Of a stretch of 64,000 nt of DNA, positions 32,138 to 32,362 are shown one piece after another. This stretch comes from Candidatus Daviesbacteria bacterium. Its GTDB lineage: Bacteria; Patescibacteriota; Microgenomatia; Daviesbacterales; UBA10151. Each line of letters opens with the position of its first letter. The stretch's first letter is position 1. Below the pieces are notes generated by a model. It did not search any database and was not told the DNA's origin. It was given only the letters and a program-made list of their open reading frames with translations. Both the position numbers and the translations under genes were made by a program. Location of the stretch: contig JACPDA010000004.1 of the NCBI GenBank assembly GCA_016184225.1, forward strand, positions 208,372 to 272,371, given 5' to 3'.

Positions 32138-32362
32138 ATGGATAAAAAGTTGCGACAAGAAAAATTAAAAATGTGGAGAGGTAATCTAGCCCAGCTGGAG
32201 CAGGATCTGGCGGTTATTTTAGAGAAAAAAGGTGCTGCTGCTCAGGAAGGTGACCTTTCCGAGAATGCCGCTTACACCATGGCAATCGAGGATGCGGAAA
32301 CAACCAGAGTGAGGATTGAAGAAATAAAAAAGATTATCAGGGACTTAGAAAAAGGAGAATAA
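32138..32362 (+). CDS. GreA/GreB N-terminal coiled-coil domain protein (74 aa; lacks the C-terminal FKBP-like domain)
   Basis: [17 protein letters not shown] matches the GreA GDLSENAEY acidic-tip motif. Confidence 0.5.

Follow-up and report, generated by a model that had tools for sequence, protein, structure and literature searches.

The window, by which we mean the whole stretch of 64,000 nucleotides of Candidatus Daviesbacteria DNA analyzed here, contains rpoB (22018-25413) and rpoC (25410-29102), followed by the str-operon genes rpsL (29117-29584) and rpsG (29581-30057), which together cover positions 29117 to 30057 on the forward strand, and then by an insert of 2 kb, a small gene, fusA, 2 open reading frames (ORFs), and tuf (35612-36796). 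The small gene, at 32138-32362 on the forward strand, is a real ORF of 74 codons with an ATG at 32138 and a TAA at 32360-32362, and codes for a stand-alone Gre N-terminal-domain protein of 74 amino acids for which we coin the name GreN. It is preceded by a Shine-Dalgarno-like GGTAGGA (32124-32130, forward strand) located 7 nt 5' of the ATG. The fusA gene (32364-34526, forward strand) codes for elongation factor G (EF-G) of 720 amino acids, for which the EF-G domain set is annotated in the orthologous loci, and its ATG at 32364 is separated by a single base from the GreN stop codon, as had been stated in the initial annotation of this DNA. The Shine-Dalgarno sequence of fusA, AAGGAG (32352-32357, forward strand), is placed within the last GreN codons (E-K-G-E), 6 nt before the fusA ATG; both ribosome-binding sites were read from the sequence. 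The 2 genes are probably co-transcribed and translationally coupled.

The segment between rpsG and the GreN promoter (30157-31759) contained an ORF of 281 amino acids with no Pfam family, for which a homolog with 54% identity was found at the same place in locus L029, as well as a histidine-phosphatase gene (PF00300) split over 2 frames (31227-31487 and 31523-31759), which is either a pseudogene with a frameshift or the result of a sequencing error. Between fusA and tuf (34529-35483), we observed an ORF of 214 amino acids with a hydrophobic N-terminus and an overlapping ORF of 120 amino acids, neither of which had a Pfam family. Homologs of the 214-amino-acid protein with 51% to 74% identity were present at the same position in L014, L015, L021, L031, and L043. 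It was also observed that rpoC in the metagenome contig L001 (5253-8945) was called as 2 ORFs of 873 and 312 amino acids, which is probably an assembly or frameshift artefact; L002 and L003, which otherwise match L001, contain a single rpoC of 1,230 amino acids.

The initial annotation had proposed that the protein is homologous to the N-terminal domain of the Gre factors with a retained acidic tip, and had called for a profile search, which was run here and supported the homology with Pfam, NCBIfam, and a family profile. The Pfam family PF03449 (GreA_GreB_N) was aligned at profile positions 5 to 68 of 71 to GreN residues 7 to 69 (E = 7.4e-8), with a score of 32.9 bits that exceeds the gathering cut-off of 24.5 bits. 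The NCBIfam greA models were aligned to GreN over their N-terminal approximately 70 positions only, and the scores were below the cut-offs for full-length greA (35.9 bits vs. 139 for TIGR01462 and 31.8 bits vs. 145 for NF001263). The tip motif GDLSENAAY is located at residues 38 to 46 (G38 to Y46, codons at 32249-32275, forward strand), and the family profile aligned it with GDLKENAEY in GreA of Escherichia coli (1grj; E = 8.8e-5), such that D39 and E42 in GreN correspond to D41 and E44 in E. coli GreA. A second motif, here referred to as KxxxW, is specific to the family and consists in GreN of K9-L-K-M-W13 (codons at 32162-32176, forward strand). GreN contains no cysteine, and no match to the DksA/TraR C4 zinc finger (PF01258) was obtained at E ≤ 1. 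Divergent copies in the GreN family also matched PF03449, some of them with scores below the cut-off.

The ORF ends at residue 74, and the C-terminal domain of the Gre factors (PF01272), which contacts the β' rim helices, is missing. A tblastn search of the window with E. coli GreA recovered the N-terminal match only, and a hidden Markov model built from the C-terminal parts of GreA and GreB identified no such domain among the six-frame ORFs of the window and 48 related loci, in total about 0.55 Mb. The absence of the domain that was noted in the initial annotation thus held for the window as well as for the related loci, and a frameshifted C-terminal domain downstream of the ORF, the finding that had been named as one that would overturn the proposal, was sought and not found. 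Neither was a canonical greA gene present next to mltG in the window, where an ORF of 125 amino acids (20195-20572), mltG (20569-21525), and an ORF of 123 amino acids (21522-21893) are followed by rpoB, which we take as weak negative evidence. A search for a CPR GreA seed in viral contigs returned only Bacteroidota-like, low-GC, or GreB-type genes, and the 80 closest matches listed for metagenome contigs were mostly from gut Clostridia and in no case from CPR bacteria. In the Clostridia-type metagenome contigs L059, L061, L063, and L072, a canonical greA gene was observed about 1.7 kb downstream of mltG/yceG.

To describe the family, we searched a collection of 5.8 billion proteins clustered at 90% identity and obtained 405 significant clusters for GreN, the best 120 of which contained proteins of 73 to 103 amino acids with 76% to 94% identity to GreN; those with a name were from Candidatus Daviesbacteria. 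When 1.84 billion representatives at 50% identity were searched exhaustively with HMMER (E ≤ 1e-3), just 19 clusters were obtained, every one of 48 to 126 amino acids, and no full-length Gre factor reached this threshold. A profile of the divergent members added 133 significant clusters, and the best 120 of these were 68 to 121 amino acids long and carried the names Patescibacteria or Daviesbacteria. PF01272 was detected in none of the best matches listed for the 405 and 133 clusters (68 to 121 amino acids).

When GTDB species were scanned with one genome each, GreN orthologs were identified at 45 loci, including one in the complete chromosome CP066688.1. Wherever the labels were informative, they referred to Daviesbacteria, Microgenomates, or Patescibacteria; the label "uncultured Gammaproteobacteria" at other loci was taken to be a placeholder, since the RpoC, FusA, and Tuf proteins encoded there were 80% to 98% identical to those of the window. 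The ORF was intact in all 45 cases, with a length of 72 to 83 amino acids, and an occurrence of intact orthologs in 45 species-representative genomes is far beyond chance. Pairwise comparisons with the Nei-Gojobori method gave a pN of 0.17 and a pS of 0.77, and the median dN/dS ratio for the 180 unsaturated pairs was 0.12, indicative of purifying selection. We conclude that GreN is a genuine gene and not a broken one. A full-text search of the literature for GreA in combination with Patescibacteria, Microgenomates, or "CPR bacteria" yielded no paper. GreN can be described as a Gre-family protein that has been conserved without the C-terminal domain and is encoded within the str operon of a CPR lineage.

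The initial annotation had also suggested that the conservation of the short gene upstream of fusA should be assessed in related genomes. The order rpoC-rpsL-rpsG, variable spacer, GreN, fusA, variable segment, tuf was found at 40 of the 45 genome loci, and the gene was situated between rpsG and fusA at approximately 44 of the 52 distinct genomic places that were examined. The distance from the GreN stop codon to the fusA start codon was at most 10 nt at 31 of 41 loci, with a median of 1 nt and several overlapping pairs. The spacer between rpsG and GreN varied in length from 23 to 5,136 nt among 37 genomes and therefore looks like an insertion hot spot. Also members with only 42% to 47% identity to GreN of the window were located in this position between rpsG and fusA, either singly, as on the contig of protein P0140 and in L141, or as an overlapping tandem pair, as in L136 and L142.

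The structure predicted by AlphaFold2 from an alignment of 40 sequences was a helical hairpin (mean pLDDT 89.7, pTM 0.70), in which helices at residues 3 to 35 and 44 to 71 are connected by a loop at residues 36 to 43. The best matches to the model in the Protein Data Bank identified with Foldseek were GreA chains, namely 9a7t_B with an rmsd of 1.2 Å over 62 columns and 1grj with 1.1 Å over 60 columns, and chains of GreB, Gfh1 (3aoi_X, rank 20), and a GreA/Gfh1 chimera were ranked below GreA. Since a helical hairpin is a common structure, the matches had weak E-values of about 0.09. According to the model, GreN is an antiparallel helical hairpin with the length and geometry of the GreA needle.

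In the alignments of the GreN family, K9 and/or W13 were invariant and no other residue was. Of 140 family proteins, 138 contained the KxxxW motif in helix 1 and 133 the tip GDL[SRK]EN. The tip is not the most constrained feature, since it has been lost or deleted in the proteins P0131, P0135, P0136, and P0137, all of which retain KxxxW. Judging by the heptad spacing of L10, W13, L17, L20, L24, and I27, W13 is likely to be placed in a hydrophobic seam near the base of the hairpin; in canonical Gre factors, the hairpin base packs against the C-terminal domain. Among the GreN orthologs in the str operon, the D-x-x-E-N-x-x-Y tip, which is the signature of cleavage-competent Gre factors, was nearly perfectly kept.

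Upstream of the GreN gene, we identified a sigma-70-like promoter element (32048-32077, forward strand) with a -35 box TTGACT (32048-32053), a spacer of 18 nt, and a -10 box TAATAT (32072-32077), which in total match the consensus at 9 of 12 positions. The first 15 nt of the element, TTGACTTTTAGGATC, of which the window contains a single exact copy, were conserved well beyond a normal -35 box. The promoter motif was located before the GreN gene in 35 loci and was found at 5 other sites in the approximately 0.55 Mb, one of which is upstream of a paralog in L048. About 5 nt past the predicted transcription start begins a hairpin that is shaped like an intrinsic terminator (32089-32116, forward strand), with the arms CCTCCC (32089-32094) and GGGAGG (32105-32110), a loop of 10 nt, and a run of 6 T residues (32111-32116) that ends 21 nt upstream of the GreN ATG. 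Its energy was -9.8 kcal/mol in a single-sequence fold, and it had been missed by the promoter and terminator scan because of the 10-nt loop.

The sequence TTGACTTTTAGGATC, the -10 box, the hairpin, and the T-run were found in the same order in 36 loci, in which the distance from the -35 box to the end of the T-run was nearly constant at about 70 nt and the distance from the T-run to the ATG ranged from 3 to 115 nt. The conservation of the hairpin was established from single-sequence folds and from compensatory changes read directly: the arms in L012 were CCCCGC/GCGGGG, which corresponds to 2 compensatory pair changes, and other arms were GCCTCCTG/...GGGGGC or CCTCC/GGAGG. RNAalifold applied to a MAFFT alignment of the leaders did not recover the hairpin, the arms of which were misaligned. 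Of the sites with the hairpin motif in the approximately 0.55 Mb, 29 preceded a GreN gene and 1 did not. The module was retained in the divergent locus L136 and absent from L013, L014, and L019, where the GreN gene starts about 24 nt after rpsG. No family in Rfam matched the leader, nor the longer leaders in L028, L032, L041, and L043. Since the hairpin is found at a fixed distance from the promoter and travels with the gene whatever lies upstream, we interpret it as a promoter-proximal leader of the GreN-fusA unit, in which GreN is the first gene. Hence, a hairpin with a T-run does precede GreN, as stated in the initial annotation, whereas its description as an intrinsic terminator, if taken to mean a plain terminator of the upstream gene, is better replaced by that of a leader conserved in 36 loci.

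The longer leaders contain an additional 80 to 115 nt between the T-run and the GreN start (L028 5909-6000, L032 5924-6000, L041 5876-5988, L043 5902-6000), and these segments have internal inverted repeats, for example CTGCGAGTGCGTGAT...ATCACAACACGAAGCAG in L032. They might form another leader structure or else be a small element that has been inserted. The extended -35 motif TTGACTTTTA(GG), located at 32048-32062 in the window, was also observed before paralogs outside the str operon in L044, L045, L046, and L048, the promoters of which have the -10 box TAAGCT instead of TAATAT. The presence of the motif before the paralogs suggests that it is a promoter or operator feature of the gene family rather than of the locus.

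Five genomes carried a GreN gene elsewhere (L044 to L048), and in 3 of these the genes were arranged as tandem pairs outside the rpsG-fusA position (L046 1835-2394, L047 6001-6480, and L048 1797-2373), with GYLSEN-AY in the second copy instead of GDLSENAAY. The overlapping tandem pairs before fusA were located at 10001-10457 in both L136 and L142, and the second copy in the str operon of L136 had the tip GDWSEN. The second copies with altered tips (GYLSEN-AY and GDWSEN) retained KxxxW. Finally, L137 and L138 contained 2 copies dispersed at a distance of 9 kb (10001-10240 and about 19123-19431). The stand-alone Gre-N proteins thus form small multigene sets, in tandem before fusA, in tandem elsewhere, or dispersed.

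Our preferred reading, to which we assign a probability of about 0.5, is that GreN is a functional, lineage-specific Gre N-terminal-domain protein that acts within the RNA polymerase (RNAP) secondary channel without the anchor that is provided by the C-terminal domain. GreN would enter the channel with D39 and E42 placed at the active site, and would there stimulate the cleavage of backtracked RNA or otherwise modulate catalysis. The lost anchor may be offset by abundance, which we expect to be high on account of the co-transcription, and the probable translational coupling, with the gene for EF-G, one of the most abundant proteins in the cell. A further compensation may come from the KxxxW motif, which is located at the helix 1 base and could steady the free hairpin or make a new contact at the channel rim. 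The paralogs with the altered tips GYLSEN and GDWSEN would be variants with different effects, comparable with GreA, GreB, and Gfh1. The terminator-like hairpin, in turn, may set the share of transcripts that reach GreN and fusA, possibly with autoregulation as for the greA leader in E. coli.

The isolated N-terminal domain of E. coli GreA reportedly has residual cleavage activity (Koulich and colleagues, 1998). In GreA, D41 and E44 act at the catalytic Mg2+, the C-terminal domain binds the β' rim helices, and mutations in the coiled coil themselves lower the binding to RNAP (PMC7527559). Against the activity of GreN in the channel it can be argued that both domains were reported to be necessary for specific binding to RNAP in E. 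coli, where overexpression of the N-terminal domain by itself gave no phenotype (PMC7527559), and that a point mutant in the C-terminal domain of a Gre factor from Mycobacterium tuberculosis loses the binding to RNAP (PMC3132773).

The structural and sequence features that suggest a cleavage factor would equally suit a protein that plugs the channel or competes for it without stimulating cleavage, similarly to Gfh1 or DksA, as had been suggested in the initial annotation, and that tunes initiation or elongation or opposes a resident full-length GreA. The existence of altered-tip paralogs would agree with such a function. Moreover, Rv3788, a Gre homolog in M. tuberculosis, lacks cleavage activity even though its acidic residues are retained (PMC3132773), and cleavage can therefore not be taken for granted from a conserved tip. 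We nevertheless consider a plug or competitor unlikely, though well worth keeping in mind, given the nearly perfect D-x-x-E-N-x-x-Y motif in the str-operon orthologs and the poor competition to be expected of an anchor-less protein facing a full-length factor. The tight linkage to fusA could equally mean that GreN has a role in translation. In that case, the coiled coil would have been exapted to cooperate with EF-G or the ribosome or to regulate them, or to connect RNAP with the translation machinery, and would no longer enter the RNAP channel. The very short distance to fusA is conserved across deep divergence, and it is KxxxW rather than the Gre tip that is most conserved, both of which would agree with such a role. 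We find it rather improbable, however, because the nine-residue Gre tip was kept in 133 of 140 proteins, while we know of nothing on the ribosome that requires this motif, and because there are paralogs away from fusA. Moreover, ribosomal-protein operons commonly include transcription-factor genes, and in the window itself nusA precedes infB at the start and rpoBC precede rpsL, for which reason the location of GreN is no argument against a role in transcription.

That half of a canonical Gre factor is missing, and that the fusA Shine-Dalgarno sequence overlaps the 3' end of the GreN gene, might be taken to indicate a decaying remnant of greA, the alternative raised in the initial annotation, or an upstream ORF that is translated merely for the expression of fusA, in either case with a functionless protein. 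This is highly improbable: the gene was intact in 45 species genomes under a dN/dS ratio of about 0.12, more than 500 clusters of short proteins were identified, the length and the fold were unchanged and the position was kept down to 42% identity, paralogs were maintained elsewhere in the genomes, and the listed relatives were all short, none with a C-terminal domain from which a recent truncation could have arisen. The conservation data effectively refute this reading, and it was rejected.

A more far-reaching version of the secondary-channel reading, which we offer as a speculation with the odds clearly against it, is that Daviesbacteria have no Gre-type factor other than GreN, which rescues backtracked RNAP without an anchor, and that the leader ties the supply of EF-G, and perhaps of EF-Tu, to the elongation or backtracking state of RNAP. 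If so, GreN would prove by a natural example that a Gre factor can do without the C-terminal domain, provided that the needle is present in EF-G-like amounts and has the KxxxW motif at its base, and through the leader, the quality control of transcription and the capacity for translation would be joined in a feedback loop.

To our knowledge, all characterized Gre-family factors need the globular domain to dock on RNAP. A conserved family that consists only of the needle would define a minimal effector of the secondary channel, and the GreN family extends over a whole CPR order and its relatives, with its own invariant motif and its own tip-variant paralogs. GreN would thereby offer a small and tractable probe of channel binding and extend the str operon of these reduced-genome bacteria by a transcription factor. 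That GreN is so constantly coupled to fusA, with a leader resembling a terminator ahead of both, suggests that the proofreading of transcription may be connected with the supply of translation factors.

Among the known systems, the closest are GreA and GreB (PF03449 plus PF01272; TIGR01462), which share with GreN an N-terminal antiparallel coiled coil of equal length and a GDLxENxxY tip with 2 acidic residues; the rmsd between the GreN model and E. coli GreA was about 1.1 Å. Unlike GreN, they contain the C-terminal globular domain that binds the β' rim helices, and the KxxxW motif that is invariant in helix 1 of GreN was not seen in the aligned E. coli GreA sequence. GreN also differs from GreA and GreB by being encoded in the str operon and coupled to fusA. 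The Thermus inhibitor Gfh1 and Rv3788 in M. tuberculosis are Gre-family paralogs for which the channel is the same but the outcome has changed, a diversification which the altered-tip paralogs of GreN resemble. Both of these proteins have retained the C-terminal domain that GreN lacks, and GreN is not of the Gfh1 type, which combines a Gre-like N-terminal domain with a C-terminal domain and an inhibitory acidic-rich tip, since its own tip is of the GreA type. TraR, a plasmid-encoded relative of DksA of 73 amino acids, provides a precedent for a protein of about this size in the RNAP secondary channel after the loss of a part of the parent factor. DksA and TraR belong to another family, however, with a C4 zinc finger, and TraR has kept the element that binds the rim helices.

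With regard to the leader, two-thirds of the transcripts stop at a terminator in the E. coli greA leader, which gives rise to the GraL RNAs, and the autoregulation of greA depends on the leader (PMC2836576, PMC6829880). The arrangement upstream of GreN recalls this leader, as a terminator-like hairpin lies ahead of a Gre-family gene and only a few tens of nucleotides past a predicted strong promoter, and it may thus be a GraL-like attenuator. It differs from GraL in having no sequence or Rfam similarity and in a downstream unit that also includes fusA. Rnk, the regulator of nucleoside diphosphate kinase, is like GreN a Gre-family protein with a non-canonical balance of domains, but the truncation is the opposite one: Rnk has kept the C-terminal domain together with a short coiled coil, whereas in GreN the coiled coil is complete and the C-terminal domain is missing.
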